64,000 bases of DNA. It comes from Anaerolineae bacterium. Its GTDB lineage: Bacteria; Chloroflexota; Anaerolineae; UBA1429. The position numbers and the translations under genes were made by a program. The stretch covers positions 512,001 through 576,000 of the forward strand of contig OY776562.1 in NCBI GenBank assembly GCA_963675785.1, read 5' to 3'. Each line of letters starts with the position of its first letter. Position 1 is the first letter of the stretch. Positions 2,861-19,869 of the stretch are shown piece after piece. The notes under the pieces were generated by a model. That model was not told where the DNA came from. It searched no databases and saw nothing but the letters and a program-made list of their open reading frames with translations.

Positions 2861-2886
2861 GAGGGGGCTTCGGCCCCCTCTTTTTT
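2861..2886. terminator. Intrinsic terminator between convergent genes
   Basis: GAGGGGGC-TTCG-GCCCCCTC followed by TTTTTT. Confidence 0.9.
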
Positions 2887-4018
2887 ATTGGGGAGAATCC
2901 AAGAGGGATTGGAAAAAGGTTGTGTCGAGACCGCGGAAGGTCTGCGACAGGGAACCGGCGGTTCCGGCAAAGCGCCCCGTGTTTACCGACTGGTCGAGCA
3001 TGGTCTGGCTGTAGAGATGGTGAATCAGCGCCTCAAGCGAGGCCGAAAGGGCATAACCCGTGTTGTGCAGCAGCACTTGTGCTTCGAACCTTCCGGGCCA
3101 GGGAGCTACGTTCTTCAGGATAGAGAGTTGACCGTCTTCATCTTCAGTGCCCAGCGCTTCTAGACTGACGATGCCGATCATAGGCTCTTGCGCCTCTAAC
3201 AGAGCCTGAACAACCTGGGCATCGCTGTATACCATAGAGGGGCTGTTGCCGAGGATAGCCGAAACCAGCATTTCACCGGCCTGGCTTGCATCCTCAAGGG
3301 CCTGACCTGCGTATAGTTCATAAGCCTGTGCTACTTGTTCAGGGGCAGCTTTTATGCGCTCGAACAGCTCGGCTGTCTCTTCGCTTACATCCGGATTAGC
3401 CAAAACCAGGCGACCGCTCCAATCGGCAGAGGTTAGTACCCACCAATTGTTGACAGCACTGGTTGCTGCGGGGACATTTGTTACCAGAACGCGTGCAGTC
3501 CATGTGTGGATCGATAAACCTGTCACTGTCTGCAAAAAGGCAGTGGGATCTGCAGGTGCGGCTGCTTCCAATTGACCATTATCGACTAGCCCGCGCACCA
3601 GTTCCAAATCATCGAGGAGGAAGAGTTCCGGAGCGTCCTCCTCAGCAAGCAGGGTGGCGGTATGTTCTGATTCCGAGTACTGCAAGTTGAGTTCGGTGAG
3701 GGATGAAGCCGATACGAGCCATTCGGCGGAACCGAGAAGACGGGCATTGGCTATCACCAAACCAATCGTGCCATCGTTGGGCAATGGTGTATTCGCCGGC
3801 GGTATGGACGTTTCGGCGGTAGTTGCCGATGCTTCTGGTATGGCCGAGACAGAATTTGCTGCAAAAGGAGTTGCACTTGCTATAGGCTGGATGGTTTCAG
3901 TAGATGTTTCAGCCGCCGTGTCTGCAGTCTCAATAGGCGCAGCGAGCTTGTAGGTGCCAGCACATCCCACAATTAAGACAGAAACTAGACCGATAGCAAT
4001 GATTGTTCTTTTGACCAA
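2885..4018 (-). CDS. Lipoprotein, divergent ABC-type solute-binding protein
   Basis: Signal peptide with lipobox IVGC, Thr/Ala/Pro-rich linker, and WWVLTSADWSGRLVLANP resembling Fe3+/polyamine-type SBPs. GAGGT SD before TTG. Confidence 0.6.
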   Translation of the reverse strand: MVKRTIIAIGLVSVLIVGCAGTYKLAAPIETADTAAETSTETIQPIASATPFAANSVSAIPEASATTAETSIPPANTPLPNDGTIGLVIANARLLGSAEWLVSASSLTELNLQYSESEHTATLLAEEDAPELFLLDDLELVRGLVDNGQLEAAAPADPTAFLQTVTGLSIHTWTARVLVTNVPAATSAVNNWWVLTSADWSGRLVLANPDVSEETAELFERIKAAPEQVAQAYELYAGQALEDASQAGEMLVSAILGNSPSMVYSDAQVVQALLEAQEPMIGIVSLEALGTEDEDGQLSILKNVAPWPGRFEAQVLLHNTGYALSASLEALIHHLYSQTMLDQSVNTGRFAGTAGSLSQTFRGLDTTFFQSLLDSPQ

Positions 4019-5152: not shown

Positions 5153-6079
5153 ATGAACAAGAACAAACCGTTTAGCGGCCGCACTATTCTAGTCGCTGTG
5201 GTCGTTGTTTTAGTTTTAATTATGTTGTTTTCTAGTTATACTATTGTAGAACCGGGAAATCGCGGTGTTGTTGTCTTTCTTGGTGATGTTGAAGAAGACA
5301 ATGTGCTACCAGAGGGTTTCCATCTTGTGCTGCCGCCTCTGGCCAGACAGGTGACGCAGGTCAATGTGCGCACTCAAAAGATAGAAATTGTGACCGAAGC
5401 GGCTTCAAAGGACCTGCAGGCTATGGTCATTACTGCGGTGCTCAACTATCATGTAGACCCCGCGGGCGCCGGGCTTTTGTTCCAGCAAGTTGGTCTGGAT
5501 TACGAAAACGTTATCATTGCGCCGGCCATTCAAGAGGCGCTCAAGGCGGTAACGGCCAGTTATCGTATTGAAGAAGTGTTGGTTAATCGAGCGATTATCA
5601 AGGACGAGATTGCTTCAATTCTCTCCGAGAGGCTGGGCACCAACCAGATCATCGTGGATCAATTCTCTTTGCAGAATGTTGAGTTCTCTGAAGAGTATAA
5701 CCAGGCCATCGAGCGCAAGCAGATTGCTGAGCAAGGAGCGCAGCAGAAGGAATACGAGCTACAAGCCGCCGAGATGGACATTCAAATTGCCATCGCCAAC
5801 GCAGAGGCTGAGAAAGAAGCCGCGATCAGGGCGGCAGAGGGCAGGGCTATTGCTCGCCAGATAGAGGCTGAAGCTGAGGCCCAGGCATTGGCACTAATCG
5901 CCGAACAGCTCAGGGATAACCCGGCCCTTATCCAATACGAGTGGGCCACGCGGTTATCTCCCAGCGTCAATACAATTTTGCTGCCGGCGGATCAGGAGAT
6001 CATTTTGGGCGGAGATAGTTTGATCACTTCGCCAACGGTTGAGAGTACAGAAACGATAACGACTACGACGGAAGAGTAA
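5153..6079 (+). CDS. SPFH/prohibitin (band 7) family membrane protein
   Basis: N-terminal TM, IVEPGNRGVVV, ASKDLQ, AIERKQIAEQ, and an Ala/Glu-rich coiled coil. Confidence 0.9.
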   Translation: MNKNKPFSGRTILVAVVVVLVLIMLFSSYTIVEPGNRGVVVFLGDVEEDNVLPEGFHLVLPPLARQVTQVNVRTQKIEIVTEAASKDLQAMVITAVLNYHVDPAGAGLLFQQVGLDYENVIIAPAIQEALKAVTASYRIEEVLVNRAIIKDEIASILSERLGTNQIIVDQFSLQNVEFSEEYNQAIERKQIAEQGAQQKEYELQAAEMDIQIAIANAEAEKEAAIRAAEGRAIARQIEAEAEAQALALIAEQLRDNPALIQYEWATRLSPSVNTILLPADQEIILGGDSLITSPTVESTETITTTTEE

Positions 6080-6097
6080 CCAGCAGATCATCGATGA

Positions 6098-6574
6098 GTG
6101 GACATAATGATTGACGAGGATAACAAAGCCGTGCATAATCAGGAAGAAAAGTTTCATCCTCTCATCCGTTATTGGTTGATGGGGCAAGGGGCCCAATACC
6201 CTGAACGAAACAAGGGTGCGGCTTTGGATCTCAAGGCCCGGCTGAAGGGCAAGCGCAGACTGGTATGGGGATGGGCCAAGATTCCTACTGGTGTAGCCCT
6301 TGCGATGCCTGATGATGTTGTGGTTCGCGTTACTGGGCGCAGCGGCAATTTTCTCCGTGGGCTGATTGTGCATGATGGTCTTGTGGAGTCCGAGTTCAAT
6401 GGCCAGGAACTCTGTGCGCTGATCTATTGTCCGTGGCCTCGTGTGATTCATCATGGTCAGCGTATTGCACAGATGTGGGCTATATCCATTGAGCGGAAAG
6501 CTTTTGAACAAGTAGTGCAAGAACCCACAGGTGTGTTTTCAACTAAAACAGGGTTTGGCTCAACGGGGGAATAG
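6098..6574 (+). CDS. Divergent trimeric dUTPase-like protein
   Basis: All five dUTPase motifs in order: GAALDL, IPTG..GRSG, GLVESEFNGQEL, GQRIAQ, GFGSTG. Motif 3 and motif 5 are non-canonical. Confidence 0.75.
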   Translation: MDIMIDEDNKAVHNQEEKFHPLIRYWLMGQGAQYPERNKGAALDLKARLKGKRRLVWGWAKIPTGVALAMPDDVVVRVTGRSGNFLRGLIVHDGLVESEFNGQELCALIYCPWPRVIHHGQRIAQMWAISIERKAFEQVVQEPTGVFSTKTGFGSTGE

Positions 6575-6616
6575 TTTTGTTCCTCGGTGAGCGAATAGAA
6601 ACCAGGTGGTACCGAG

Positions 6617-8269
6617 ATGCAGAACAAGAGATCGATGCCAAATACTATCGTCGTTTTGGTCGTTGTTTGGATTGTCTTGGTCGCGAATGCGCTGATTTTT
6701 GCGGTGATTGCACCATCGAACCAGGTGATAGGCCCTGTTGAGCTGTCAGGTTATCCATCTCCAGGGGTGACCGTGGAGATGGTTTTGCCACAGCGCTTGG
6801 AGACCTGGAATACGACGGACGCTGCACAGGTTTTGACGCTTTATGTGACGCCGCATCGCCCTGATGTTGAAGGGGTATCTCTGGTTTTTGCTCTTGGTGA
6901 TCGCTCTGTTGTTTTGACCGATGTCAATGGTCAGATACTATCTGGGCCAATCGAGGTATCCTTCCAATATCCTGCCGAAATGATATTGCCGCTCTATGTT
7001 GCTACAGCCGCGACCGGAGAGGGTTCGGGTCTGCTCTCCTCTCATACGGTTTCTCTCAATCTCTATACCCTGCGCGATGGTGTACAAACCCCTGTTGATG
7101 GGCTGGGCACGCAGATCGCCCTATCTAGCCGTCTTGGCAGCGCACTGCGCCGCGTCAATGATTTCTTGACTCGTATCGCTTTGCCGATCATGGCAATCTT
7201 GACTCCTTTTGTTTTGCTGGGCAACTGGTGGGCTAAACGTCGACAACGGCAGACAGATGCACAAAAAGCACTGGATGCGCGGTATGTGTTCATTCGCGAA
7301 CTTGTAGATGCAGGGCAGATTGTCAGGGCAAGGGAAGCTGCTGCTCTTCTTCGTCGCGAAGCGCCCAACTATGCTCGTATTGACCACCTCGACGAGTTTT
7401 TGTCCACTTTGGGGTCTGCGGAGTTGACCGCTTCAAGTGTTGTGTCATCCAATACTGAATCAACGTTAGATGAGGGCATCAAAGCATACAAGGCGCGGGA
7501 TTGGGAATTGGCTTGCGGATTGTTGCATACTGCACAAGCGACCGATGAATACAATCCGCATCTGCAGTTTCTGTATAGAACTTCATGTCTCTACCTAGCC
7601 CTATCGGGGAGGGATCGCAGTAAGCGTATCGCCGCTTTGCGTGAGTTGGGCGAGATCGGCGATTTGGTCGATCTGGTGCCCATCGTCGATGCACTGGACG
7701 ATGCTAATTCAACCGTTGCCAAGGCTGCTGAAGAAACTTTGCTTGCCATTGGCCCGGTTGCGTTTGATGCTTTGGCACGGGGACTCAAAAACCCCTCGCA
7801 AAGTATCAAACGCCGCTCTCGAAACGTACTTGCCAGTCTGGGCCAGGATATTCGTGAACAGCTTTTGTCTTTGTTGCATACTCGCGATGCCGAACTGGTG
7901 GCTATTGCTTCAGAACTTTTGATTGGTTTGGGTGCGCGCGAACAACTTGCAGATGCATTGCTGTGGGCGGATCCAACAGTTCTTGACGGCATCGTCAGTG
8001 CCTTGGTTTCAGATGAGATTGTCGCGCTTCAACCGCTGCTGGATGTGCTGTTGCGGGCGCCAAGCGAACGTCAGCCATATGTTTTGGCAGCTATCGGCGA
8101 ACTCAAAAAGCACGTCAATATTGACCGACGTATTGAGGATATGCAGCGCAGCGTGCGCGATGGAGAAAAGCGAAATCTTCTTGGGCGCGCTTTGCGGATG
8201 AATGCCCTTGATTATGATCAAGCCTTGGTCAAAAATCAGCAGGTATATCAGGCTGCGCAAGCTGATTGA
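6617..8269 (+). CDS. Membrane protein with external domain and cytoplasmic TPR + HEAT repeats
   Basis: Two hydrophobic segments, a TPR-like helix pair (EGIKAYKARDWELA), and HEAT/PBS-lyase-like repeats (RIAALRELGEIG, VAKAAEETLLAIG). Confidence 0.7.
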   Translation: MQNKRSMPNTIVVLVVVWIVLVANALIFAVIAPSNQVIGPVELSGYPSPGVTVEMVLPQRLETWNTTDAAQVLTLYVTPHRPDVEGVSLVFALGDRSVVLTDVNGQILSGPIEVSFQYPAEMILPLYVATAATGEGSGLLSSHTVSLNLYTLRDGVQTPVDGLGTQIALSSRLGSALRRVNDFLTRIALPIMAILTPFVLLGNWWAKRRQRQTDAQKALDARYVFIRELVDAGQIVRAREAAALLRREAPNYARIDHLDEFLSTLGSAELTASSVVSSNTESTLDEGIKAYKARDWELACGLLHTAQATDEYNPHLQFLYRTSCLYLALSGRDRSKRIAALRELGEIGDLVDLVPIVDALDDANSTVAKAAEETLLAIGPVAFDALARGLKNPSQSIKRRSRNVLASLGQDIREQLLSLLHTRDAELVAIASELLIGLGAREQLADALLWADPTVLDGIVSALVSDEIVALQPLLDVLLRAPSERQPYVLAAIGELKKHVNIDRRIEDMQRSVRDGEKRNLLGRALRMNALDYDQALVKNQQVYQAAQAD

Positions 8270-8311
8270 CAAGGTGGTTTTAGTTGCTATAATTGTTACA
8301 GTTTAGTAACA
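8266..8311 (+). promoter_or_regulatory. Sigma70 promoter with downstream operator-like repeat
   Basis: TTGACA (8266-8271), 16 nt, TG-n-TATAAT (8288-8293), immediately followed by TGTTAC-N6-GTAACA. Confidence 0.75.
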
Positions 8312-8326
8312 TAAACGAGGTGAACG

Positions 8327-9016
8327 GTGGCCAGATTTCTTGTTGCAGATGATGAAGAATTCATCGTGCAGGTAGTTGAACAATTGTTGGCAACTTCTGG
8401 ACATACCGTTGTCAAGGCATCGAATGGTGCCGATGCTCTGGCTTTGTTGCGCTCTGATCCGGTCGACATAGCTATTTTGGATGTGATGATGCCCAAAATG
8501 ACCGGTTTGGAAGTTTGTTCGCGCATGCGTCAGTCGCCGGAACTCAAGAATATCCCTGTTCTCTTTTTGACCGGACGTGAAGAGTTGAGCGACAAGGTGC
8601 AGGGATTTGAGGTTGGGGCAGATGACTATGTGACCAAACCATTCAATCTTCGTGAACTGGATGCACGTGTCAAGGCCCTGCTTCGCTTTGTGCGCCCCGT
8701 CTCGGATCCCAATGTCCTTTCTGTGGGTACTTTGGAAATGAATCGCGGCAGTAATTTGGTGTACGTCAACGGCGAATCGGTGAAACTAACACCTTCAGAA
8801 TTTGATGTTCTTTTTTTCCTTGCCTCCCATGCGGGGGAAATCATTTCCTCTCGGGATTTGCTCAAAGAATTGTGGGGATCTGCCGCAGCGACTGGCAGCA
8901 CTAGTTTGGTGCGCATGCACGTGCTCAATATCCGCCGCAAAATCGAGCAAGATCCTGACAATCCACGCTATATTCTGACGATTCCGCGCCATGGCTATGT
9001 TTTCAAGGTCGAATAA
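8327..9016 (+). CDS. OmpR/PhoB family response regulator
   Basis: REC (VADDE, LDVMMP, GADDYVTKPF) plus winged helix (LTPSEF, HVLNIRRKIE, TIPRHGY). Confidence 0.95.
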   Translation: MARFLVADDEEFIVQVVEQLLATSGHTVVKASNGADALALLRSDPVDIAILDVMMPKMTGLEVCSRMRQSPELKNIPVLFLTGREELSDKVQGFEVGADDYVTKPFNLRELDARVKALLRFVRPVSDPNVLSVGTLEMNRGSNLVYVNGESVKLTPSEFDVLFFLASHAGEIISSRDLLKELWGSAAATGSTSLVRMHVLNIRRKIEQDPDNPRYILTIPRHGYVFKVE

Positions 9017-9197
9017 AGCAGTTTTATCTTTACACTTTATGCGACATTCACGCTTAACCCCATTCATTATCCTATACTAAGGTTACTAAATACTAGCATT
9101 TGGGCATTGTTGCAAAGGCAATGCCTTGATGTGTTATCCGTATGATTATCTTTTATAGGCGTATCAGCACAGCTTTTGTAAGCTGCTTGAACCCAGT

Positions 9198-10850
9198 ATG
9201 GGGATTAGAATTGTGCAGACAGAGTCGATGAATCGGGAACTAGACAAGCGCGTTGTCGTCGTTGACGATGAAGAAGACGTGAGGCTTTTCTGTTCGTTGG
9301 TGATGGAGAGGCTTGGCTATGATGTCAATTCCTTTGCTTCTGGCGAACAAGCTCTTGCCTTTCTTGCGAGCGCTTCGACGGATTTGTTGATTACGGACGC
9401 TAAAATGCCCGGCATGAGCGGGATTGAGTTGATTGAGCGGGTCAAGGCCCTCGATCCGGCGATTGCGGCTTTAGTCATTACTGGCTATAGCACTATGGAG
9501 ATGGCGTTTGAGGCGATTCGCGCAGGAGCACAGGATTTTCTGCCGAAACCCTTTTCGGTTCAGGACCTGAATGCTGCTGCAAAACATGCTCTGGAGCAGG
9601 CGCGTCAGGCCCAAGAGTACGCTAGCATGCGTGCCATCATGCCGTTGATCGAGCTGTCGCAAGAACTTGTAGGGCAGCAGATGAATCTCGATGAAATGGC
9701 CCTTCAGATTACAGAAGTTGTCTGCCGCGTATGTAAGGCAGATGGCGCAGCAATTGTCCTGATCAACAGTCGAGGAGAGCAGAGAGTTCTGGGTCAGCGC
9801 GGCCCGTTTCCAGCTGTTTTTTCGTCCCGATGTCTGACGGGACAAAACAGTCTTGAGATATTCTCCTTGGATATGGTTGAAGAGGGCGATTTTCGTTTGG
9901 CCATGCAGCAAGCTGGCGTTGGCTATATGGCCAGCGCAGCTCTCGAGGCTCCCAGCGGCTATGTCGGTACAATTGCCCTGACTTCATTAGCGGACTTTTC
10001 TCAGTTTACGCGCGGTTCGCGGCATTTTCTGCAAGCCATGTCAGGTCAGGTCGCTGCAATTATCGAAAACGTTCGCATGATGGAAGAGCTGCAAGAATGG
10101 AACCGAGTGCTCGAAGTGCGGGTGGCTGAGCGAACAACCGAATTGCAGAATGCACAAGAGCAGCTTATTAACGCGCAGCGCCTGGCAACAATTGGCGAAC
10201 TTGGCGCAAGTATTGCCCACGAGATGCGCAATCCGCTGGGAGTCATCAGCAATTCCGAGTATTACTTGCGGATGCGCCTTGGAGACGATGATCCCAAGCT
10301 CACCAAACATCTTGATATCATCAAGCGTGAAATCGCAGCTTCCAATGCCATCATTACCGAACTGATGAGTTTTGTAAGAGCTACAAACCTACAACCTGCG
10401 CCACTCGACCCGGCAGAACTCTGCGAAAGATGCCTGAGTCGAATCGAAGCGCCTTCTTCTATTACCGTCGTTCGTGATTGGCCCGTCGATTTGCCACTCA
10501 TTGACGGTGATCAGGATAGGCTAGAGATGGTGTTGATGAATCTCTTGAATAACGCAGTGCAGGCGATGCCCGACGGCGGCGTGTTGACGCTCAAGGCAGA
10601 AGAATCTTCAGACGGGGTCGCTTTCTATGTTCAGGATACGGGGACAGGTATCTCGAAAGAAAACATGGAGCGCATATTCGAGCCGCTTTTCACAACAAAG
10701 ACGCGCGGCATTGGCTTGGGTTTGGCTATTGTACGTCGCCTCATTGACGCCCACGGCGGAACTATTCGCGTTGAGAGTGAGCTAGGCAAGGGAACGCGCT
10801 TTGAGGTGTTGATTCCTGTTTCCGAACGGGTAAGGGTGCCCGTGGCATGA
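9198..10850 (+). CDS. Cytoplasmic REC-GAF-HisKA-HATPase histidine kinase
   Basis: REC (VVDDE, TDAKMP, KPF), GAF-like segment, H-box AHEMRNPL, N-box NLLNNA, DTGTG, FTTK, GLGL. No TM segment. The start may be a few codons downstream. Confidence 0.93.
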   Translation: MGIRIVQTESMNRELDKRVVVVDDEEDVRLFCSLVMERLGYDVNSFASGEQALAFLASASTDLLITDAKMPGMSGIELIERVKALDPAIAALVITGYSTMEMAFEAIRAGAQDFLPKPFSVQDLNAAAKHALEQARQAQEYASMRAIMPLIELSQELVGQQMNLDEMALQITEVVCRVCKADGAAIVLINSRGEQRVLGQRGPFPAVFSSRCLTGQNSLEIFSLDMVEEGDFRLAMQQAGVGYMASAALEAPSGYVGTIALTSLADFSQFTRGSRHFLQAMSGQVAAIIENVRMMEELQEWNRVLEVRVAERTTELQNAQEQLINAQRLATIGELGASIAHEMRNPLGVISNSEYYLRMRLGDDDPKLTKHLDIIKREIAASNAIITELMSFVRATNLQPAPLDPAELCERCLSRIEAPSSITVVRDWPVDLPLIDGDQDRLEMVLMNLLNNAVQAMPDGGVLTLKAEESSDGVAFYVQDTGTGISKENMERIFEPLFTTKTRGIGLGLAIVRRLIDAHGGTIRVESELGKGTRFEVLIPVSERVRVPVA

Positions 10851-11227
10851 ATTCAGATCTGCACCTTCTCATTGTCGATGACGAGCCGAACATGCTGGCA
10901 ACTCTGCAAGATATTTTAGAAGAGTTTGGTTGGCATGTGGACTGTGCTACCTCGGGCAATGAGGCACTCGATTTACTGGCAAACCTTGATGTGGACTTTG
11001 TTCTGATGGATTTCAACATGCCCGGCCTTTCTGGCGTTGAAACAGCCGAAAAGATGATACTTGAGCGGCCTCACCTACCAGTTTTTCTTATGTCTGCTGA
11101 TGTGAGCGAATTGTGGAAAGCCAAGGCTGTGCAATGCGGCGTTCGGGCAGTGCTTTCCAAGCCGTTGGATATCCCCAGTGCAATGGCATTGCTGACTGAA
11201 CATCACAAGCAAGGGATTAGCATATGA
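10847..11227 (+). CDS. Single-domain response regulator (CheY-like)
   Basis: IVDDE, MDFNMP, MSA, SKP. ATGA overlap with the kinase stop. Confidence 0.92.
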   Translation: MNSDLHLLIVDDEPNMLATLQDILEEFGWHVDCATSGNEALDLLANLDVDFVLMDFNMPGLSGVETAEKMILERPHLPVFLMSADVSELWKAKAVQCGVRAVLSKPLDIPSAMALLTEHHKQGISI

Positions 11228-11871
11228 GCAAGTATGCAGCCGAGTATGCCAATTCAGATACAGAAACGGGACAGGCTGTCAGAGCTATCGGACATGACCT
11301 CCGAAATCAGCTTGCCGTTATGCGCAACTCTACCTATTACTTGCGTATGCGTGTGGGGAATGATGACCCCAAAATAGCCCGACACCTTGAAATTCTCGAT
11401 CAATCCATCGAACAGGCCAATCACAAGGTTCTGGACCTTATGGATTACGTTCTGCCGCGCACACCTGCTGTTGAACCCTGCTCTTTACTGGTATTGGCAT
11501 CGACTTTTTTGAATTATTGGCATACAGATGCAGAGATTGAGCAGGCATCCTTCGATGTAGGCTTGACGGTGTCTATCGACAAGACGCAGATAGATCGGGC
11601 TTTGCAGCTTTTGGCCGAGGCGCTGCATGAAAGGCAAGCTGCTTGTCTATCCTGCAAAATTGTCGCTGGTGGTGGCTATGGCATTGTTACCTGTGAACTG
11701 GATCAAGCTTTGAATCCACCTCTGTGTGTCAAGCGCCCGCCCCGAGTTATTCCAGCTTGTCTTTCTGAATACATGGCTGCGGGTCTCTTTGAACTAAATC
11801 ACAGTACCCTTGCCGCCTCTTTGGAGGCACAGGATAGGCACTTGCTGAATCTGGGATTTCCACTGGGGTAA
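11224..11871 (+). CDS. DHp-containing pseudo-histidine kinase / putative phosphotransferase
   Basis: H-box GHDLRNQL paralogous to the upstream kinase; C-terminal half lacks N-box Asn and DxGxG/GxGL. ATGA overlap with the previous gene. Confidence 0.75.
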   Translation: MSKYAAEYANSDTETGQAVRAIGHDLRNQLAVMRNSTYYLRMRVGNDDPKIARHLEILDQSIEQANHKVLDLMDYVLPRTPAVEPCSLLVLASTFLNYWHTDAEIEQASFDVGLTVSIDKTQIDRALQLLAEALHERQAACLSCKIVAGGGYGIVTCELDQALNPPLCVKRPPRVIPACLSEYMAAGLFELNHSTLAASLEAQDRHLLNLGFPLG

Positions 11872-11968
11872 AAGTCGGCTTTTTATGCAGTATTAACCTT
11901 TGGGCCACCCGCTCTCACGCATAATGAGATAAGTGGCCCTTTCTTGTATCTCTAAAACTCGGTGTGTT

Positions 11969-13876
11969 ATGTCTGAATCAGCTCAAGCGGTCAAAGAAAA
12001 ACAGCGTTCTATACTTGTCGTCGATGATGACCAGGCTATGTGTGAAACACTCGTCGATATTCTCGATGACAAGGGCTACAAGACTGCAAGTAGCAGTTCC
12101 GCCGTTGCGGCTATTGAGCTTTTGAAGAAAGAGCCCGTTGATCTTGTTCTGTTGGACATTATGATGCCCGAGATGAACGGCGTGGAAGCCCTTGATGCAG
12201 TCAAGCGTGCGGTGCCTCATGCAATCATCATTGTCATGACAGGTCATAGCAATCTTGAAGGTTATGTCTCAGAGGCTTTGGCCTCGGGGGTCGATGGTGT
12301 GCTTTACAAGCCTTTCGACATTGATGTAGTGCTCGATATCATTGAGCGTAGCGAGGCAGGACGAGAGAGATTCCCTCTTGTTGATCTAAGTCAGTACCCT
12401 GTGCAGGCCAATGCAATTCAGATGGTACCGCAAGAGCTGGCTCGCAAGCATTGTGTACTTCCGTTGAGGATAGAGAACAATATTCTCAATGTGGCGATGT
12501 GCGATCCGACCGATCTTATGGCGATTGAGGACTTGCGCGTACGCACCGGCCTTCGCATTAAAACGGTTCGTGCCCGGCGAGAGGACTTGGACAAGGCGAT
12601 CTCGGAGCAGTACGAGGATCTAGGTGCCATAGAACGGCAGGTCCAAAGATTTACTTTTAACACGCCTGAGGCGGCTGAGCAGCAGGCTGATCGCGTGGCG
12701 GCAGAAGCTGTTTCGCAGACGCCCGTAGTACGCGCGATAGACCTTATGCTTCAACAGGCTGTGCGAGATAGAGCTTCGGATATTCATATCGAACCCCAGG
12801 ATGACCATCTTCGCGTACGCTATCGTATCGACGGTGTGCTGCAAGATGCGATTCGTCTGCCAAAGAGGGTTCATCCGGCCATTATCTCTCGCATCAAAGT
12901 GCTCTCGGCACTCAATATTGCCGAGCGAAGAAGGCCGCAGGACGGACAATTTAACGCCATCATTGATGGTCGCTCGATTGATTTTCGTGTTGCTACGGCT
13001 AATACAGTCAATGGCGAGATGGCCGTGCTGCGCGTGTTGGATAAGCAGATCTCGGTCAAGAGCTTGCCCGATCTGGGATTTCTGCCCGATATGCTGGAGC
13101 GTTACAAAAAGGTAACGACAGCGCCTTGGGGGATCATTCTCATCGCCGGCCCAACGGGTTCTGGTAAAACGAGCACACTTTATGCAACGCTGCATCAGCT
13201 CGACAGTACAGAACTCAAGATTATTACGATTGAAGATCCCGTCGAGTACCGCTTCGAAGGTATTAGCCAGATGCAGGTGAACCATCGAGCGAATGTAACG
13301 TTTGCCTCTGGTATGCGTGCCGCCGTCCGTTTGGATCCCGACGTCATTCTGGTGGGAGAAATTAGAGACGAAGAGACGGCGACAACGGCTGTACAGGCTT
13401 CTCTCACGGGCCACTTGGTCTTCTCTACTATCCATGCCAATGATCCAGTAGGTGCGGTTTTACGACTGGCGGACTTGGGCGTAGAGCCTTTCCTGATCAC
13501 TTCATCGCTGCTGGGCGTGCTCAGTCAGCGTTTGGTGCGCAAAGTTTGTCCGCAGTGCAAGGTTCTTCAAGAAGTTCCGTTCAATGAACGGGCTGCTTAT
13601 CAAGAGATCTTGGGCGAGGATATGGAGCGTTTCTGGGTGGGTACGGGATGCAGTTATTGCGCTCAAACGGGTTATCGGGGTCGAGTGGCATTGTTTGATT
13701 TTATGGAGCTTGATGACAATTTGCGAAAGCTCATTCTACAAGGCGCAAGTTCAGCGGAATTACGTGAGCACGCCCACAAAGCGGGCAGTGGAGGAATGAT
13801 GGAGGACGGGATGCTCAAAGTAAAGCAGGGCATCACAACGCCGGGCGAAGTACTCAAGCGCGTCTTTGAGATGTGA
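11969..13876 (+). CDS. pilB: Type IV pilus/T2SS assembly ATPase (PilB/GspE family) with N-terminal receiver domain
   Basis: REC N-terminus; ASDIHIEP, AERRRPQDG, Walker A GPTGSGKT, TIEDPVE, DPDVILVGEIRD, TGHLVFSTIH, zinc CPQC..CSYC. ATG at 11969 preferred over GTG 11933. Confidence 0.93.
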   Translation: MSESAQAVKEKQRSILVVDDDQAMCETLVDILDDKGYKTASSSSAVAAIELLKKEPVDLVLLDIMMPEMNGVEALDAVKRAVPHAIIIVMTGHSNLEGYVSEALASGVDGVLYKPFDIDVVLDIIERSEAGRERFPLVDLSQYPVQANAIQMVPQELARKHCVLPLRIENNILNVAMCDPTDLMAIEDLRVRTGLRIKTVRARREDLDKAISEQYEDLGAIERQVQRFTFNTPEAAEQQADRVAAEAVSQTPVVRAIDLMLQQAVRDRASDIHIEPQDDHLRVRYRIDGVLQDAIRLPKRVHPAIISRIKVLSALNIAERRRPQDGQFNAIIDGRSIDFRVATANTVNGEMAVLRVLDKQISVKSLPDLGFLPDMLERYKKVTTAPWGIILIAGPTGSGKTSTLYATLHQLDSTELKIITIEDPVEYRFEGISQMQVNHRANVTFASGMRAAVRLDPDVILVGEIRDEETATTAVQASLTGHLVFSTIHANDPVGAVLRLADLGVEPFLITSSLLGVLSQRLVRKVCPQCKVLQEVPFNERAAYQEILGEDMERFWVGTGCSYCAQTGYRGRVALFDFMELDDNLRKLILQGASSAELREHAHKAGSGGMMEDGMLKVKQGITTPGEVLKRVFEM

Positions 13877-13877
13877 T

Positions 13878-15080
13878 ATGGAATTCGAATATGTAGCCTA
13901 TACAGGTTCTGGTGAACGCGTCAAAGGTTCTCTTGATGCTGCAGCAGAAACCGGCGCAGAAGAGATCCTCTGGAGTCTTGGTTATACCATTGTAACACTC
14001 CGAGAAAAACGCGGTTCAAGCCAGACTATTTTTGGCATTGGCATGCGCATCAAAGCGGACGATCTGGTCGTCTTCTCTCGGCAGTTGGCCACACTGATCG
14101 AATCCGGTATCTCTTTGACGCGTTCTCTAGAACTATTGGAGACGCAGATCGGTAACAAGCGCTTTCGTGGGATATTGATCGAGATTATTGCTGATCTTCA
14201 GCAGGGCCATTATTTCTCTGAGGCGATTGCCAAGCAGGGACAGGCTTTTCCCATGATGTATGCGCGGCTGGTCGAGGTTGGTGAGCGGACAGGAGGCCTA
14301 GAACAGTCCCTTTTGCAGTTGGCTGATTATATCGAAAAAGAGACTGCTCTGGTTCGCAAGATTCGTAGTGCCATGGCCTATCCGGCATTTGTTCTATTCA
14401 TGGCCGTCGCTGTTATCGTGCTTATGCTCACGGTCGCTTTGCCACCACTCATGGGATTATTCGAATCCTTTGGCGCAGAGTTGCCGATTTACACGCGCAT
14501 ACTCATGGCGCTCACCAACTTTGTTACGGATTATCGGCTGGAGATCATCGCTGTTGTTGTGGCTGTTGCTGCAACCTGTTTCTTTTATTTCCGTTCCGCG
14601 ACTGGTAAATATACCTGGGCCAGGATGATGGTGAAAATACCTATCATCAAAAGGGTAACCATCAACGGGGCTGTGGCCCGCATCTGCAATACGATGGCCA
14701 TTTTGCTCAAGTCAGGCTTGGCACTTCCCGAGATCATTGATCTCTGCATTCGTACCCAGGGCAACCTGATCATCAAGGGGGCGCTGGAATCAGTAAAAGA
14801 AGAATTGCTTCAGGGGAAAGGGCTTGCAGATCCTCTGGCAGAGCAAGAATTATTCCCCCAAATGCTCGTGCAGATGGTGCGAGTAGGCGAAGAGACGGGT
14901 GCACTCGATTCAAATATGGCTACACTGGCTGTGTTTTATGATCAAGACGTCGATCGTACTGTGAATGCCATGTCCGGTATGATTGAGCCAGCACTGACGA
15001 TTCTTGTGGGTGGTATGACAGGATTCATCGCTCTGTCTGTCATGGGCCCCATCTATTCGCTGATGAGCGTCATAAAGTAG
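13878..15080 (+). CDS. pilC: Type IV pilus platform protein (PilC/GspF)
   Basis: FSRQLATLIESG, VGERTG, AMAYP, VGEETG, MIEP; 3 TM segments. Confidence 0.93.
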   Translation: MEFEYVAYTGSGERVKGSLDAAAETGAEEILWSLGYTIVTLREKRGSSQTIFGIGMRIKADDLVVFSRQLATLIESGISLTRSLELLETQIGNKRFRGILIEIIADLQQGHYFSEAIAKQGQAFPMMYARLVEVGERTGGLEQSLLQLADYIEKETALVRKIRSAMAYPAFVLFMAVAVIVLMLTVALPPLMGLFESFGAELPIYTRILMALTNFVTDYRLEIIAVVVAVAATCFFYFRSATGKYTWARMMVKIPIIKRVTINGAVARICNTMAILLKSGLALPEIIDLCIRTQGNLIIKGALESVKEELLQGKGLADPLAEQELFPQMLVQMVRVGEETGALDSNMATLAVFYDQDVDRTVNAMSGMIEPALTILVGGMTGFIALSVMGPIYSLMSVIK

Positions 15081-15085
15081 GGTGG

Positions 15086-15487
15086 ATGGCTGTGACCAAG
15101 TCGGAACGCGGTAGCTTGTTGATTAGTGAGCTCATAGCGGTGGCAATCATTGCCCTGGCTCTCATTGTGCTCATCATTGCACTTGCTACGGGCAGCCAGG
15201 GGGCTCTTTCTGTTCGTCAACGGGCAGCAGCCGAATCCATGGCTATGGAGCAGATCGAGCTAATCAAATCTGTGCCATATAGCACAGATCCATCAGATTA
15301 TCCTCTTGTGGCTAATGAGGATCCTTATTCGGTAGATTTGACGGTCATGTTCTGGAATGGCTCAGATTTTCAAGCTACCACACCAACCGAGGATTTGGGG
15401 CTCCAAAAGGTCACTGTTGAAGTCTACTCGTCCCTTTTTGCCGGCAGCCCGGTTTTGATACTTGAGGATTATAAGGCGGATCACTGA
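15086..15487 (+). CDS. Minor pilin-like protein (PilV-like)
   Basis: Class III-type signal KSERG|SLLISE plus a hydrophobic helix. Glu is at +6 rather than +5. Confidence 0.7.
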   Translation: MAVTKSERGSLLISELIAVAIIALALIVLIIALATGSQGALSVRQRAAAESMAMEQIELIKSVPYSTDPSDYPLVANEDPYSVDLTVMFWNGSDFQATTPTEDLGLQKVTVEVYSSLFAGSPVLILEDYKADH

Positions 15488-15984
15488 TGGCTGGTCATGG
15501 AAGAGAAACAGAGAGCAAGGGCTTTACGCTCATCGAGCTCTTGATTGCACTAGCGATTTCGGCAATTGTCGGTACATTGGCGATTTCGGCGATCAGGCAA
15601 TTTGTGAGTATATCGGCAGCTGAGCAGGACACCATGGCAGTAAGCACCCAAATCAAAGTCTTGTCTTCAAAGCTGAGCCAGGATTTAGTATGTGCCAACT
15701 CGGGTGAAGTATTGGATGATGGACAAACCCTGGTACTCTATTTGTCTACATTCGAGTTTGGTGAGCTTATCGAGCCCGTCTCTTATAGCATCAACTACAG
15801 CCTTGTCGATAGCGTGATTATACGAACAACCAGTGATGGTTCTGTTACTGTGGCCAGGGGTGTACAGAGTGTCAGTTTTGGGCAGGATGGCGCCATTGGC
15901 GATGTTAGTACGATTGACGTGACGATTCGCATTGGTGATGTGGTAGACTCGACGACGATAACGCTTGATCGAAGACCCTCATAG
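15487..15984 (+). CDS. Minor pilin (PilW-like), prepilin cleavage/methylation motif
   Basis: ESKG|FTLIELLIALAI canonical motif. Confidence 0.88.
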   Translation: MAGHGRETESKGFTLIELLIALAISAIVGTLAISAIRQFVSISAAEQDTMAVSTQIKVLSSKLSQDLVCANSGEVLDDGQTLVLYLSTFEFGELIEPVSYSINYSLVDSVIIRTTSDGSVTVARGVQSVSFGQDGAIGDVSTIDVTIRIGDVVDSTTITLDRRPS

Positions 15985-16030
15985 CTAGCAGTACGACTAG
16001 CAGCTATGCCTCCAAAGGGGGTATGACAGG

Positions 16031-17212
16031 ATGGGTAGGAAGAAAATGATCAGCAAAGATGACAGAGGTAACGGACTGCTTTTGGCACTGTGCGTATTGG
16101 CGGTAGTTGCCATTCTGCTTTCTCCTCTCATGGCCAGTATGAGGGCGAGCGTAGCTACAACTGGTGAAACGGATAGCCTTCTGCGTGAGCATTATACGGC
16201 TGACGCTGCTGTAGAGTACGCCATCAACGAGTTGCAGAAAAACGCTGATTTGCGCTCTGAATTGATCACTAACCTCGGCCAGGCGCAGACACTGCCATTT
16301 GAACTCGAAATCAACGGCGTTGTGCCAGAGATTGAGATCGTGGCGCTGTCTGCTGATACAGGCAGTTTTACCGGTGGCATGCTCGAATATGCCCTGTGGG
16401 CGCACAGCACCACAGGTGGCGATGTCATCAACATATCAGGATCGGGGCATGCAATTTATGGTGCCGTGCATTCGAATGATCGCATCAGAATCAGCGGCGC
16501 CGGGAACTCGGTTAGCTCTGTCGCAGAGTATGTCGATCGGCTGCGCACGAGTGGCGCCGGGAACTCGAGCTGGGAGAGCTATGCACAGCAGGTTGAGGTT
16601 GCAGACGAGTACCCCATCTCCTGGGATCTCGACGAGTTTTCTGACCCCTCTGCTGAAGGTACCTATGCCTATCAAGCCGCTGAGGAGGGCAAATACCATT
16701 ACTATAGTAGCGATCTGCATTTGAGCGGCGCGGGTGAGGTGATGGATCCGGGGCTTTATTTTGTCGATGGTGATGTGAAGATCAGTGGGGCAGGTGTGCG
16801 GGGGGATGCTATCACAATTGTGGCCACCGGCCAGATTGATCTTTCTGGGGCGGGATTGAGTTTTTCTCCCTATGTCTCTGGGTTGAGCTTTTTCGCCAAC
16901 AGCTCTCAACTAAACGGCAGTGGTGCTGTGAACATTACCGGCTCTGGCAACGCGGGCGGTACAATCTTTGCGCCCAATGGCCTCATCAAGCTTTCTGGTG
17001 CGGGTGGGCAGATTACGGGAGCGTTTATCGGCCAGGAGATCGATATCTCGGGATCGGGCTGCCGTATCTATCTGGCAGAAATCCCTCTGACGCAGGCAAC
17101 GTATTGCGGCGTTTTTGACATCAAAGCAACGGCTGGCGATGAGGTTGTACAGGCCCGCGTCTCGGACTGTGGCGATAATGGCTTACAAATTCTGGCCTGG
17201 ATGGCAGACTAG
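16031..17212 (+). CDS. PilX/GspK-like tip pilin with repeat (beta-helix-like) domain, paralogue 1
   Basis: DDRG|NGLLLAL lacking E5, YTADAAVEYA, ~9 xxxSG[A/S]G repeats, C-terminal Cys pair. The start may be 16046. Confidence 0.75.
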   Translation: MGRKKMISKDDRGNGLLLALCVLAVVAILLSPLMASMRASVATTGETDSLLREHYTADAAVEYAINELQKNADLRSELITNLGQAQTLPFELEINGVVPEIEIVALSADTGSFTGGMLEYALWAHSTTGGDVINISGSGHAIYGAVHSNDRIRISGAGNSVSSVAEYVDRLRTSGAGNSSWESYAQQVEVADEYPISWDLDEFSDPSAEGTYAYQAAEEGKYHYYSSDLHLSGAGEVMDPGLYFVDGDVKISGAGVRGDAITIVATGQIDLSGAGLSFSPYVSGLSFFANSSQLNGSGAVNITGSGNAGGTIFAPNGLIKLSGAGGQITGAFIGQEIDISGSGCRIYLAEIPLTQATYCGVFDIKATAGDEVVQARVSDCGDNGLQILAWMAD

Positions 17213-17223
17213 GCAGTTCCTTC

Positions 17224-17259
17224 AAGCCGGATTCGGGTATCCCGAATCCGGCTTTTTTT
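17224..17259 (+). terminator. Intrinsic terminator ending the pil operon
   Basis: AAGCCGGATTCGGG-TAT-CCCGAATCCGGCTT (14-bp perfect stem) running into a T tract. Confidence 0.9.
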
Positions 17260-17332
17260 AATCTCATCCTTGCGCTACAAGCCCCAAAAGGTGACATAAT
17301 ACCTGTATGATAGAGCTTGGCAGAGGCAAAAG

Positions 17333-18496
17333 ATGAGTACTCATGAGCAAAAAGGTTATGGTTATGCGGGTGCCCTCGCTTTGTTGGCAATGGTTTCCTT
17401 GCTTACAGGCAGCATTCTCATGTCAATCAGTTCCAACGTCGCGGGTTCTACACGAACCACAACCAAGACCCAGGAGCGCTATGCGGCTGATGCGGGCATC
17501 GAATACGCCTTGAATCAGCTTTCTACCGATCAAGGACTGCGCGAGAGCATTCTTAGCCAGGTGGGCGTGCCGGTTGTGCTTTCATTGGATGAATCAGTCA
17601 ATGGCTATAACCTGGAAATTCGCATAGTAGCTTTGCAGCGAGAAGAAAAGGTTATCCCCCAAGGTGGCTTGCTCAAGTATGGGCTATGGGCCAGCGATCA
17701 AAGCTCAAACGATGCTATCTGGATATCGGGGGCAGACCATCAGATACTTTCCTCTGTGCACAGCAACGGTGGCTTGCTGATAGAGGGCAACGGACATGGT
17801 GTTACTGGGGATGTAGAGTACTGTACCAGCATACATACAGGCGGTGTTGGCCTATCTGACTGGGTAGAGAATGCCGTATTATCCTCAGTACAGAGCGAGC
17901 CGCCGGGCATTTGGACTGCGGATGATCTGGATCCTAGTGTACTGGGTAGCTATGCAGCGACTGCTGCTGAGGTCGGAGAGCTGTATCAGATTAGCGGCGA
18001 TTGGAGCTATTCAAATGCTTCTACGCCCATCCCTTCAGGTCTTTATCTGGTTGACGGGAATATATCCATCAGTTCTTCCGGCATTGGCGGAGAAAATGTG
18101 ACTTTTGTAGCGACGGGGCAAATTACCATTTCGTCGACGGGATTATCTTTCTCCCCCTATGTTCCAGGGCTTACTTTTATGACAACATTGGTTACGCCCA
18201 AGGACGGCTGCGCTTTCGCACTCAGTGGGGCAGGCAATGTGGGTGGTACTGTTTATGCACCTAATGGGCGCATTTCTATATCTGGTGCAGGAAACCAAGT
18301 GACGGGTGCTTTTATGGCGCGCTGGATCGATATCAGTGGATCTGGCTCGCGTATTTACTTGGCGCCGGTTCCCGTGCCGGTCTCTGAAGCCTGCGGCACC
18401 TATGACATTGAGGCGACTGCTGGAGATTCCACGGTCAAAGCGCGCATCACTGATTGTGGTGACAGCATCGAGATTTTGGCCTGGGAGATTGACTAG
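17333..18496 (+). CDS. PilX/GspK-like tip pilin with repeat domain, paralogue 2
   Basis: EQKG|YGYAGALAL, YAADAGIEYA. Colinear with 16031-17212 (VHSN, GLYLVDG, VATGQI, FSPYV, APNG, IDISGSG, C..DC, ILAW). Confidence 0.75.
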   Translation: MSTHEQKGYGYAGALALLAMVSLLTGSILMSISSNVAGSTRTTTKTQERYAADAGIEYALNQLSTDQGLRESILSQVGVPVVLSLDESVNGYNLEIRIVALQREEKVIPQGGLLKYGLWASDQSSNDAIWISGADHQILSSVHSNGGLLIEGNGHGVTGDVEYCTSIHTGGVGLSDWVENAVLSSVQSEPPGIWTADDLDPSVLGSYAATAAEVGELYQISGDWSYSNASTPIPSGLYLVDGNISISSSGIGGENVTFVATGQITISSTGLSFSPYVPGLTFMTTLVTPKDGCAFALSGAGNVGGTVYAPNGRISISGAGNQVTGAFMARWIDISGSGSRIYLAPVPVPVSEACGTYDIEATAGDSTVKARITDCGDSIEILAWEID

Positions 18497-18515
18497 GGCA
18501 GCTTTTCCTATAGTA

Positions 18516-18545
18516 AAAAGGGGCACTCGTAAGAGTGCCCCTTTT
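18516..18545. terminator. Bidirectional intrinsic terminator
   Basis: AAAAGGGGCACTC-GTAA-GAGTGCCCCTTTT between convergent genes. Confidence 0.9.
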
Positions 18546-18567
18546 GGGTTAGGTCCTCAAAAGTTGG

Positions 18568-19869
18568 TTACAATCCCTGAATGCCGATGATGCGGGCAGG
18601 GTTGTTCAACAACATGTCTTCGGCCATTTGCATGGCGTCATCGAGGCTGAAGGGCTCCATGTTCGGATGAATGAGGCTTCGCTCCATACGCTCAGCCAAA
18701 GCCGAGGCCAACTCGAACTTGTACATTCTGAACTTGGGCAGAATGAACTCGAGATAATAAGCATCCGAAAAATAGCCAATGTTCTTGCAGCCCGGGACGG
18801 CATTGATGCGGCGTCGGATTTCGCGGGCAATGTCGGTGGGCTGGTTTGAGTACCACCAGTGTCCCGAAGGATAGACATTATGGCGAATCCAGGCGGCGGT
18901 CATCAATTCCATGCCAGTTGTATCGGATAGAACAGCGGTCGGAAAGTCAACATCCCAATAGGTATTGAGCACATAATCGTATCCGCGCATCGAGTTGACC
19001 GAGTCAACCAGGTCAGTGCCGCGGGGCACGCCATGCTCATAGGTGTCGCGGTTCACGCCGATCATGAGATGGAAGGGCTTTTTGTATTTGCGGCAGTGAT
19101 CGCAGACGCGGTTCATGGCCCAGGCCGACCAGGTATTCATTTCACAGCAGTCCAGGGCGCCACCAGCGATCGCCTTGTCTAAAATACGCTGAGCATCCTC
19201 ATCTGCAACCTCAAAGGTTTGGAAGCCGGTGGGGATGGACATAGCGGCATAGCCCATGCCATGCTTGACAAAGCGTGCAAAGGTCTTGTCCATAGCTTCG
19301 ACCACGTCGCTGGTTACTTTGACGGGGCGGCCGATGACTTGAGCAAAGCCATCACGAATCGCTGGACGGTCAATCCAAATGATAAAGCTTTCTGTGCGCA
19401 GGCAGGGCGCATAGAATGAGCTATCCATGCCTTCAAAGTCATCATCGAATTCATTGGTCAAAAAGACCTTGATGATGTTAGATTGCTTGATCATCTCATC
19501 TCGCCATTCGGGGCGGCCCATCACATCAACCGAACGGTCGTAGATGCGCTCCCAATTTTCTGGTTTCCAGTCGGCAGCGGGAATGCCGAGATAGTCCCGA
19601 GAAATGGTCATGAGCCAATCGTACTGAACCGTGTTCTTGATGAGGCTCAGTTTGGGTAGAATCTCTCTGGTTAGTGCTTTGGGGTCCTCAAAGGGGAACT
19701 TGCCACCCTGAAACTCGGCCGAGTTGGTCAGTTCAGTGTAATAGTGGTAGCTCAGGATGTCGCCGATGCTTTGGGCTGTCCCCGTTTTCCACTCGACATG
19801 TGTGTGGATATCGAGGATTGGCAGATCGTTGATGCGGCGGTATAGATCCGCGATCAGTGCGCTATTCAT
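18568..19869 (-). CDS. uxaC: Uronate (glucuronate) isomerase, amidohydrolase fold
   Basis: PILDIHTH, LSYHYY, HLMIG, GHWWY, YFSDAY. ATG at 19869 after GAAAGGAAGG (track extends to 20025). Confidence 0.78.
   Translation of the reverse strand: MNSALIADLYRRINDLPILDIHTHVEWKTGTAQSIGDILSYHYYTELTNSAEFQGGKFPFEDPKALTREILPKLSLIKNTVQYDWLMTISRDYLGIPAADWKPENWERIYDRSVDVMGRPEWRDEMIKQSNIIKVFLTNEFDDDFEGMDSSFYAPCLRTESFIIWIDRPAIRDGFAQVIGRPVKVTSDVVEAMDKTFARFVKHGMGYAAMSIPTGFQTFEVADEDAQRILDKAIAGGALDCCEMNTWSAWAMNRVCDHCRKYKKPFHLMIGVNRDTYEHGVPRGTDLVDSVNSMRGYDYVLNTYWDVDFPTAVLSDTTGMELMTAAWIRHNVYPSGHWWYSNQPTDIAREIRRRINAVPGCKNIGYFSDAYYLEFILPKFRMYKFELASALAERMERSLIHPNMEPFSLDDAMQMAEDMLLNNPARIIGIQGL

Follow-up and report, generated by a model that had tools for sequence, protein, structure and literature searches.

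The window analysed here is a 64,000-nucleotide stretch of contig OY776562.1 from an Anaerolineae bacterium (Chloroflexota; assembly GCA_963675785.1, positions 512,001 to 576,000, forward strand). Its subject is REC-PilB, a 635-residue protein encoded on the plus strand (11969..13876) that joins an N-terminal receiver (REC) domain to an assembly ATPase of the GspE/PilB class. Judged by its sequence, REC-PilB is probably a response regulator with an assembly ATPase of type IV filaments as its output, switched by phosphorylation of Asp63 (D63), with the histidine kinase encoded upstream as the likeliest phosphodonor. It is an uncharacterised variant of a documented theme, in which receivers act on the extension motor, rather than a new principle, and proteins of this kind are numerous in databases.

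A receiver domain at the position of the c-di-GMP-binding subdomain

The start codon of REC-PilB was placed at ATG 11969 because 22 homologues start at the same alignment column, and residues are counted from this codon throughout, except for the Pfam ranges, which are counted from a GTG at 11933. In the latter numbering, Response_reg covers residues 27-137 (E 3.3e-26), MshEN residues 148-229 (E 4.1e-19; profile positions 4-86 of 90) and T2SSE residues 259-641 (E 3.6e-124), i.e., a receiver is followed by the C-terminal subdomain only of MshEN and by a T2SSE ATPase. An AlphaFold2 (AF2) model built on a 23-row alignment (predicted local distance difference test score, pLDDT, 75.8; predicted template modelling score, pTM, 0.54) displays a (beta-alpha)5 receiver of five strand-helix pairs at residues 14-129 (12008..12355), with pLDDT mostly 73-82 over the first 90 residues and lower beyond. 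A low-confidence five-residue linker at residues 130-134 (nucleotides 12356-12370) connects it to an alpha/beta N1 domain at residues 137-214, and a disordered stretch at 217-250 precedes the N2 and C-terminal ATPase domains. The receiver contains D19/D20/D21, D63, T91 and K114-P115, combining the fold of PF00072 with its acidic pocket, Asp, Thr and Lys, and D63 is the predicted phospho-acceptor. The preliminary description of this DNA had placed a complete receiver at the start of PilB and its junction at ~12340-12380; both hold, and the linker falls within that range.

In the remainder of the protein, the MshEN C-terminal alpha/beta subdomain occupies residues 136-217 (12374..12619), the helical c-di-GMP (cyclic di-GMP) subdomain being absent, and the T2SSE core (12707..13855), comprising N2 and the C-terminal domain, bears the Walker A Lys, the catalytic Glu, the His box and the four-Cys zinc motif, in line with the motifs and fold of GspE/PilB-class ATPases (PF00437). 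Foldseek identifies PilF and PilB cores as the nearest solved structures of the core (TM-score 0.85-0.89). A 271-residue open reading frame (ORF) on the minus strand (12620-13435) lies fully within the pilB coding region and is most likely spurious.

Alignments to solved structures define what the receiver stands for. Residues 135-630 of REC-PilB correspond to M. xanthus PilB starting at its residue 59 and to two Geobacter PilBs starting at residues 76 and 82, and the receiver therefore takes up the place of the first ~58-81 residues of the solved PilBs. Residues 13-127 separately match single receivers, FleR, Spo0F, CheY and NtrC1 among them, in the PDB search, which found no chain spanning both the REC part and the ATPase part. 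In MshE, the first residues form a four-helix subdomain with two RLG motifs, and the c-di-GMP motif of MshEN consists of two tandem 24-residue repeats of the type RLGxx(L/V/I)(L/V/I)xxG... in this N-terminal helical subdomain (PMC5013675). MshE and PilB proteins with a c-di-GMP-binding MshEN thus belong to the same ATPase class as REC-PilB, share its C-terminal subdomain and also carry their sensor at the extreme N-terminus, yet the sensor is a helical two-RLG subdomain there and a receiver here. An RLG-type motif, in strict or loose form, is found in none of 23 REC-PilB family members. In four ordinary PilBs used as controls, which come from generic pilB loci introduced below, two have RLGE at residues 6 and 9 (loci L043 and L032) and two have no RLG (L001 and L068). 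By this motif, REC-PilB does not qualify as an MshEN-type c-di-GMP receptor. The absence of RLG motifs and the exchange of a c-di-GMP sensor for a receiver, both suspected from the first look at the sequence, are thus borne out, with REC exactly at the position of the helical MshEN_N subdomain of ordinary PilB.

We propose that, in this Chloroflexota lineage, a canonical receiver took the place of the helical c-di-GMP-binding subdomain of a GspE/PilB-class motor. Phosphorylation of Asp63 would alter the signalling surface of the receiver, and the change would be passed via the short linker to the N1 alpha/beta domain, with an effect either on how hexamers form and turn over ATP or on how the motor docks to the PilC platform. 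The switch in filament assembly would then be post-translational. The likeliest phosphodonor would be the soluble REC-GAF histidine kinase encoded upstream, acting directly or via a lone receiver and a DHp-only protein encoded between the two. The phosphorylation, its effect and sign, the identity of the donor, and whether the filament is a pilus or another type IV filament are what we infer here. If correct, the proposal implies a modular sensor position at the N-terminus of PilB, accommodating a reader of either c-di-GMP or phosphate.

The REC-PilB architecture is conserved among Anaerolineae

A search with the first 260 residues of REC-PilB retrieved one protein of 99% identity and 23 further clusters at 42-53% identity, all 23 of which carry PF00072, PF05157 and PF00437 and, if named, bear the label Anaerolineae or Anaerolineales. 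For conservation analysis, the window protein was aligned with 22 of these clusters, leaving aside the 99% copy (P0001) and a 396-residue fragment (P0009). Across the resulting 23 members, D20, T91 and K114 are invariant (23/23 each), and D19 and D63 are each present in 22/23. K400, E422, E464, H489, C527, C530, C561 and C564 of the ATPase part are likewise each conserved in 23/23. This residue pattern argues for a working phospho-receiver. A chimeric assembly, which the preliminary description had raised as a concern, is excluded because the junction is kept across independent assemblies; all 23 further clusters have the same architecture.

The upstream cassette and its linkage to the motor gene

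The genes upstream of REC-PilB encode four signalling proteins in a row. The first, which the preliminary description had missed, is an OmpR-family response regulator of 229 residues (8327..9016, plus strand; Response_reg 1.4e-30, Trans_reg_C 1.7e-21), whose best NCBIfam matches, RpaB and MtrA, lie below the cut-offs. A sigma-70-like promoter site (TTGACA-16 nucleotides-TATAAT with TG; 8266..8293, plus strand) stands 34 nucleotides before this gene and is a possible start of the transcription unit; it has 12/12 consensus matches and is the best of 13 sites, a count not above that of shuffled sequences (mean 10.3). The site overlaps the stop codon of the preceding gene (6617-8269), which encodes a 550-residue protein with transmembrane (TM)-like windows at 4-38 and 182-205 and a weak HEAT-repeat match. 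A 181-nucleotide gap with a weak hairpin separates the regulator gene from the kinase gene.

The kinase (9198..10850, plus strand; 550 residues) has the Pfam order REC-GAF-HisKA-HATPase_c (HATPase_c 2.2e-28) and no TM-like window, consistent with a soluble protein. Its GAF domain scores 20.2 bits against a Pfam cut-off of 22.4, and GAF families are precomputed on most of its orthologues. The kinase family comprises 47 clusters that agree with it in length and in domain set, at 36-46% identity. In an alignment of the window protein with 23 of these 47 clusters (24 sequences), D24, D67, T95 and K117 of the REC, H341 of the H-box, N452 of the N-box, and D480/G482/G484 and G504/G506/G508 of the G-boxes are all invariant. 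The protein thus has the H-box, N-box, G1 and G2 elements of a HisKA-type kinase. The best NCBIfam matches of its core are AtoS, CckA and ZraS, far below the equivalog cut-offs.

The third gene (10847..11227, plus strand) encodes a single-domain receiver of 126 residues (Response_reg 9.5e-24), with a start codon that overlaps the kinase stop codon (ATGA) and with a readable Asp pair, the Asp of a DFNMP segment, Ser and Lys. Its NCBIfam matches are NtrC-family receivers such as AtoC and NtrC, and those of the PilB REC are NosR, then AtoC, NtrC and ZraR, in both cases far below the equivalog cut-offs. These class matches weakly favour a kinase that serves the two NtrC-like receivers, i.e., the PilB REC and the lone REC.

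The fourth gene (11224..11871, plus strand), whose start codon overlaps the receiver stop codon (ATGA), encodes a 215-residue DHp-only paralogue of the kinase with the H-box His24 and an H-D-x-x-N motif. Its HisKA match of 23 bits lies under the Pfam cut-off of 26.9, and the relationship was established by BLASTP against the kinase DHp (31/73 identical, 42%; E 3e-18) and by hhalign of the protein and its homologue against the kinase family (probability 99.1 over 71 columns, DHp only). Pfam finds no HATPase_c in the protein, which therefore lacks a recognisable ATP-binding element of a kinase. Its C-terminal ~130 residues belong to no recognised family and show no significant likeness to a catalytic ATP-binding (CA) domain by hhalign or PDB profile; a weak PDB profile match to the histidine kinase 7ltq (E 0.0046) extends no further than residue 138. 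A single-sequence AF2 model (pLDDT 43.4) is too low in confidence for a reading of the fold. The one detectable homologue (P0122) is 74% identical, with the whole H-box and both helices conserved, and look-alikes in the ESM Atlas are hypothetical proteins of 208-245 residues, one cluster having HisKA on 19% of its members. The protein could act in phosphotransfer, as a phosphatase or in inhibition of a kinase.

The soluble REC-GAF kinase, the lone receiver and the DHp-only paralogue are therefore all found as first described, including both ATGA overlaps. The cassette does not overlap pilB: 97 nucleotides lie between 11871 and ATG 11969, with no terminator-like site among them. Whether the linkage recurs was judged from contig sizes, the exact sizes 66169, 71021, 55143 and 27245 of REC-PilB contigs recurring among the kinase matches. 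By this measure, a kinase orthologue shares the contig of a REC-PilB orthologue in 4/10 non-self contigs of at least 19 kb, adjacency not being implied, and in none of 13 shorter contigs. As a base rate, 80 generic pilB loci were examined; these come from species-representative genomes, were kept from at least 635 stretches by generic ATPase-motif patterns, and include no N-terminal REC orthologue. Four of them have a kinase core no more than 3 kb from pilB, four a REC within 1 kb, and one both a kinase and a REC within 5 kb; only 51/80 loci have 5 kb on both sides, and the kinase profile may miss distant kinases.

Downstream genes of the filament machine

REC-PilB is embedded in a tight gene run on the plus strand (8327-18496) that extends from the OmpR-type regulator through a DUF7305 pair. 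Immediately downstream lies the gene of a PilC/GspF-type platform protein with TM segments and two T2SSF repeats (13878..15080; T2SSF 9.9e-56, two stretches). It is followed by a 133-residue pilin-like protein with one N-terminal hydrophobic helix (15086..15487; TM-like window 7-44, no family match) and by a prepilin with a G/FTLIE class III signal (15487..15984; N_methyl 3.9e-08, TIGR02532). The locus thus unites PilB, PilC and a prepilin, as type IVa systems do. Next comes a DUF7305 protein with an N-terminal TM helix (16031..17212; 23.2 bits, under the cut-off of 27; weak N-terminal GspK match), a possible minor pilin or tip protein. A terminator-like hairpin of 14 pairs, 9 of them G-C, followed by a T-run (17224..17254) is the only strong site of its kind; it stands between the DUF7305 genes and is the likely end of the transcription unit. 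The second DUF7305 paralogue (17333..18496), again with an N-terminal TM helix, lies beyond it. Both paralogues, located after the pilins, are ~390 residues long and rich in SGAG/SGSG repeats. The promoter and terminator calls are consensus matches, which do not by themselves prove a single transcript. Pfam scanning of 53 window ORFs detected no pilT, pilM/N/O, secretin or prepilin peptidase, and no RNA family, riboswitches included, was returned by an Rfam scan of 6000-19000. What these genes bear out is type IV filament assembly, and pilus extension is what we infer from them.

Receiver-ATPase fusions in other lineages

Three topologies of receiver-ATPase fusion were seen, with an N-terminal, a C-terminal or an internal REC. 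In the ESM Atlas, clusters with T2SSE and Response_reg (and MshEN) have 3005, 224, 123, 81, 80, 66 and 55 members, most commonly from Gemmatimonadota, Thermodesulfobacteriota and Elusimicrobiota. Unlike in REC-PilB, the REC of fusions in other phyla is C-terminal or internal where checked. It is C-terminal in the PilB-class ATPases P0094, P0105 and P0107 (742 residues), the last of which retains both N-terminal c-di-GMP motifs and may, as read from these motifs, respond to c-di-GMP and phosphorylation together. P0094 and P0105 also bear a double zinc ribbon. A search of a 1.84-billion-representative library with the N-terminal 260 residues of REC-PilB gave a best 150 rows dominated by multi-REC proteins; REC and MshEN stand in one stretch in six of these 150, all six Pfam-confirmed, some of them fragments and one 968 residues long.

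Among the 80 generic pilB loci, the REC profile places a receiver within 1 kb of, or inside, pilB in four. In L046, from a Rubrobacter metagenome-assembled genome (1727-5002), a 1091-residue PilF-like ATPase has three MshEN repeats and an internal REC at residues 380-492. The other three, for which a tblastn match had seemed to cover a REC, were rejected as fusions, their REC genes being separate and beside pilB: two stand-alone receiver genes upstream of pilB in L043 (Omnitrophota; 9469-12105), one between pilB and a pilT-like gene in L068 (9947-12060), and the gene of a 286-residue REC protein downstream of pilB in L032 (6573-9289).

In a FastTree phylogeny of 102 ATPase cores, 19 N-terminal REC proteins and the L001 protein form one clade (support 0.998), and the group is supported in an IQ-TREE subset as well (Shimodaira-Hasegawa-like approximate likelihood ratio test, SH-aLRT, 99). 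The three C-terminal REC forms constitute a separate clade (FastTree 0.994), and the group nearest to the REC-PilB family in the FastTree phylogeny consists of Actinomycetota PilBs. The L001 protein (271-1998), a PilB from Dehalococcoidia, lacks a REC and has an ordinary N-terminus, and it groups with the N-terminal REC family. An approximately unbiased (AU) test on a hand-chosen 40-row IQ-TREE subset is compatible with a single clade of the 19 N-terminal REC proteins (p 0.551), and L001 was accordingly dropped as a disproof of a single fusion origin. In L001, the receiver may have been lost or replaced, or L001 may be a sister lineage; the AU test fits either. The N-terminal swap may thus have a single origin, with which the tree is compatible. 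The RECs that accompany PilB in other lineages share 22-35% identity with the window PilB REC and, across the different forms, with each other; for unrelated RECs within the window, identity is 27-35%. A common origin of the REC-PilB association is therefore not supported, the RECs being no more alike than unrelated ones, and we read the pattern as repeated and independent recruitment of receivers to this motor class.

Relation to known systems

A receiver fused N-terminally to an oligomeric ATPase is familiar from the NtrC family, in which the REC precedes an oligomeric AAA+ ring ATPase and its phosphorylation controls ring assembly. REC-PilB shares this arrangement and differs in its ATPase superfamily, in its output, which is transcription in the NtrC family, and in its linker, a coiled coil there and five residues here.

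Receivers that contact the extension motor as separate proteins have been published. EmvR of Xanthomonas oryzae pv. oryzicola binds PilB, whose Vmax falls while Km stays unchanged; the D15A, D59A and T87A variants of EmvR lose the effect, and a "one-to-two" model has been put forward in which ColS, ColR and EmvR act on PilB (PMC11973254). EmvR would resemble the present case in that a receiver acts on PilB and that a kinase serves both a DNA-binding regulator and a motor-directed receiver, and differs in acting in trans, on a PilB with its own N-terminus, in a proteobacterium. In Xanthomonas campestris, DrdR binds PilB and PilT and raises ATPase activity (PMC13507683). In Synechocystis, only the phosphorylated form of PixG binds PilB1 (PMC11181946), and PixE contacts the N-terminal half of PilB1 and the N-domain of PilC by its PATAN domain (bioRxiv 10.1101/2021.06.11.447907). 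Like REC-PilB, DrdR, PixG and PixE are response regulators in direct contact with the extension motor; unlike it, they are separate proteins, and the PixE contact is made by PATAN rather than REC. Wang et al. (2016, PMC5013675) note that MshEN also occurs together with REC, e.g., in the regulator Bd2402, in which the ligand is sensed by MshEN.

In the literature outside the supplementary tables of PMC5013675, which may list the architecture, we found no paper describing a receiver fused to a PilB/GspE ATPase, and the words "receiver" and "fused" do not occur, by a term search, in a 2024 review of PilB control (PMC11656802). The preliminary description named no characterised example of the arrangement and overstated its novelty: fusions populate large Atlas clusters in several phyla, and papers from 2024-2026 describe receiver proteins that bind PilB and tune its ATPase activity in trans. 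On/off control of type IV filament extension motors is an active question, to which the fusion in cis contributes independent support, of the gene-fusion type, that receiver-motor contact is real and recurrent, in three topologies and several phyla. With the fusion, phosphorylation, oligomeric state and ATPase rate also become measurable jointly on one polypeptide.

Weighing the proposed switch against alternatives

Several observations weigh against a motor switched by Asp63 phosphorylation from the neighbouring kinase. In the receiver itself, the residue three positions before K114 is Val, at a position usually occupied by an aromatic switch residue, and one family member, P0007, has Tyr in place of the phospho-Asp D63, perhaps as a derivative turned pseudo-receiver or through a sequencing error. 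This ATPase lineage can do without the receiver, since the REC-less L001 groups with the family. As regards the donor, six of the ten long contigs (211324, 19704, 22004, 109790, 152241 and 27164) have no kinase match; the DHp-only protein has one homologue, and the full cassette is therefore not detectably conserved; and the kinase gene adjoins that of the OmpR-type regulator, in the textbook position of its partner. Published precedents differ in sign, EmvR inhibiting and DrdR activating. As regards the machine, REC-PilB scores 559.1 bits on TIGR02533 (type II secretion system, T2SS, GspE) and 509.9 on TIGR02538 (type IV-A PilB), under the respective cut-offs of 630.25 and 675.65. The platform protein scores 307 bits on GspF and 289 on PilC, both under the cut-offs. 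In addition, pilT, pilM and prepilin peptidase genes were not found among the scanned window ORFs of at least 150 residues. The earlier claim that the co-encoded kinase feeds REC-PilB is plausible and in part supported, by the gene packing without a terminator and by the 4/10 shared contigs, the base rate of a kinase core within 3 kb being 4/80 generic loci; against it, co-occurrence concerns the same contig only, and it fails in the other 6/10.

The adjacency of regulator and kinase agrees with a branched pathway, in which the kinase would phosphorylate in parallel the OmpR-type regulator, to act on transcription, and REC-PilB, to control the motor; the lone REC would be a phosphate sink or an EmvR-like modulator of the motor in trans, and the DHp-only protein a phosphatase without kinase activity or an inhibitor that forms heterodimers. 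The "one-to-two" model of ColS, ColR and EmvR on PilB (PMC11973254) sets a precedent, stand-alone REC genes sit beside pilB in 3/80 generic loci, and the DHp-only protein not only bears the H-D-x-x-N motif but is 42% identical to the kinase DHp, making heterodimers conceivable. However, the regulator and kinase genes are separated by the 181-nucleotide gap and weak hairpin, and the AtoS/ZraS-like kinase core belongs to a class whose partners are NtrC-type rather than OmpR-type receivers, a weak argument. We regard such branching as possible, if on balance doubtful.

A second alternative concerns the machine, which might build a type IV filament of a different kind (a T2SS-like pseudopilus or a filament for DNA uptake, for instance), the signal gating secretion or uptake. 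The ATPase scores higher on GspE than on PilB and the platform protein higher on GspF than on PilC, all under the cut-offs, the first DUF7305 protein has a weakly GspK-like N-terminus, and no pilT is present among the scanned window ORFs. Against this, the operon contains no gene for a secretin or for GspL/GspM-type proteins by Pfam, PilF and PilB cores come closest among solved structures, and the closest group in the tree is that of the Actinomycetota PilBs, leaving a different filament somewhat unlikely.

The preliminary description went further than a kinase-fed motor and spoke of a phosphorelay. In the relays Spo0F-Spo0B-Spo0A and CckA-ChpT-CtrA, the components are a kinase, a single receiver, a DHp protein that lacks the ATP-binding domain, and a receiver-output protein at the end. 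The gene set here has those component types, with a motor in place of a transcription factor as the terminal output. A strict four-step His-Asp-His-Asp relay would run from the kinase to the lone REC (in the role of Spo0F), to the 215-residue DHp protein (Spo0B/ChpT-like) and to REC-PilB, in agreement with the gene order and its translational coupling. An H-box His with no ATP-binding domain is the layout of Spo0B and ChpT, and the DHp-only protein has this His, no recognisable ATP-binding domain, and the H-box and both helices conserved in its 74% identical homologue. Yet this homologue is the only one, and no Spo0B or ChpT likeness is seen among PDB matches at E up to 1. The C-terminal part, of low AF2 confidence (pLDDT 43), has no likeness to a CA domain by hhalign. 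The protein also retains the H-D-x-x-N motif, which is typical of phosphatase-competent HisKA proteins. The kinase itself is without a C-terminal receiver, so that a relay is not forced, and its default partner could be the OmpR-type regulator. Given the kinase match in 4/10 contigs and the single DHp-only homologue, the four-step relay is therefore unproven; we consider such a relay unlikely. It is similarly improbable that duplication of the kinase DHp has newly given rise, in the DHp-only protein, to a Spo0B/ChpT-like phosphotransferase with REC-PilB as its terminal acceptor. If true, a multi-input checkpoint as in sporulation or the cell cycle would be wired onto a filament motor with neither a transcription step nor a second messenger.

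Finally, the cassette could be a mere neighbour, an unlinked kinase phosphorylating REC-PilB or the receiver being a phosphorylation-independent dimerisation or docking module, as the 6/10 long contigs without a kinase match, the Tyr of P0007, the Val at the switch position and the phosphorylation-independent receivers known near pilus motors (the FimX REC, which lacks the Asp, PMC11656802; the first REC of DrdR, a pseudo-receiver, PMC13507683) would allow, but this is improbable, since the Asp is kept in 22/23 members and the Thr, Lys and second acidic residue in all, unlike in pseudo-receivers, and 4/10 contig matches are far above random placement in a multi-megabase genome.

Other features of the window

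Three further ORFs have no Pfam match at E up to 1e-5: 47699-50392 (minus strand, 897 residues), 32489-34120 (plus strand, 543 residues) and 2885-4018 (minus strand, 377 residues). A 317-residue protein encoded at 46749-47702 contains two tandem RNase H stretches. A separate two-component pair of the PdtaS/PdtaR type is encoded on the minus strand (50430-52505), consisting of a GAF_PdtaS, HisKA_2 and HATPase_c protein followed by a REC and ANTAR protein.

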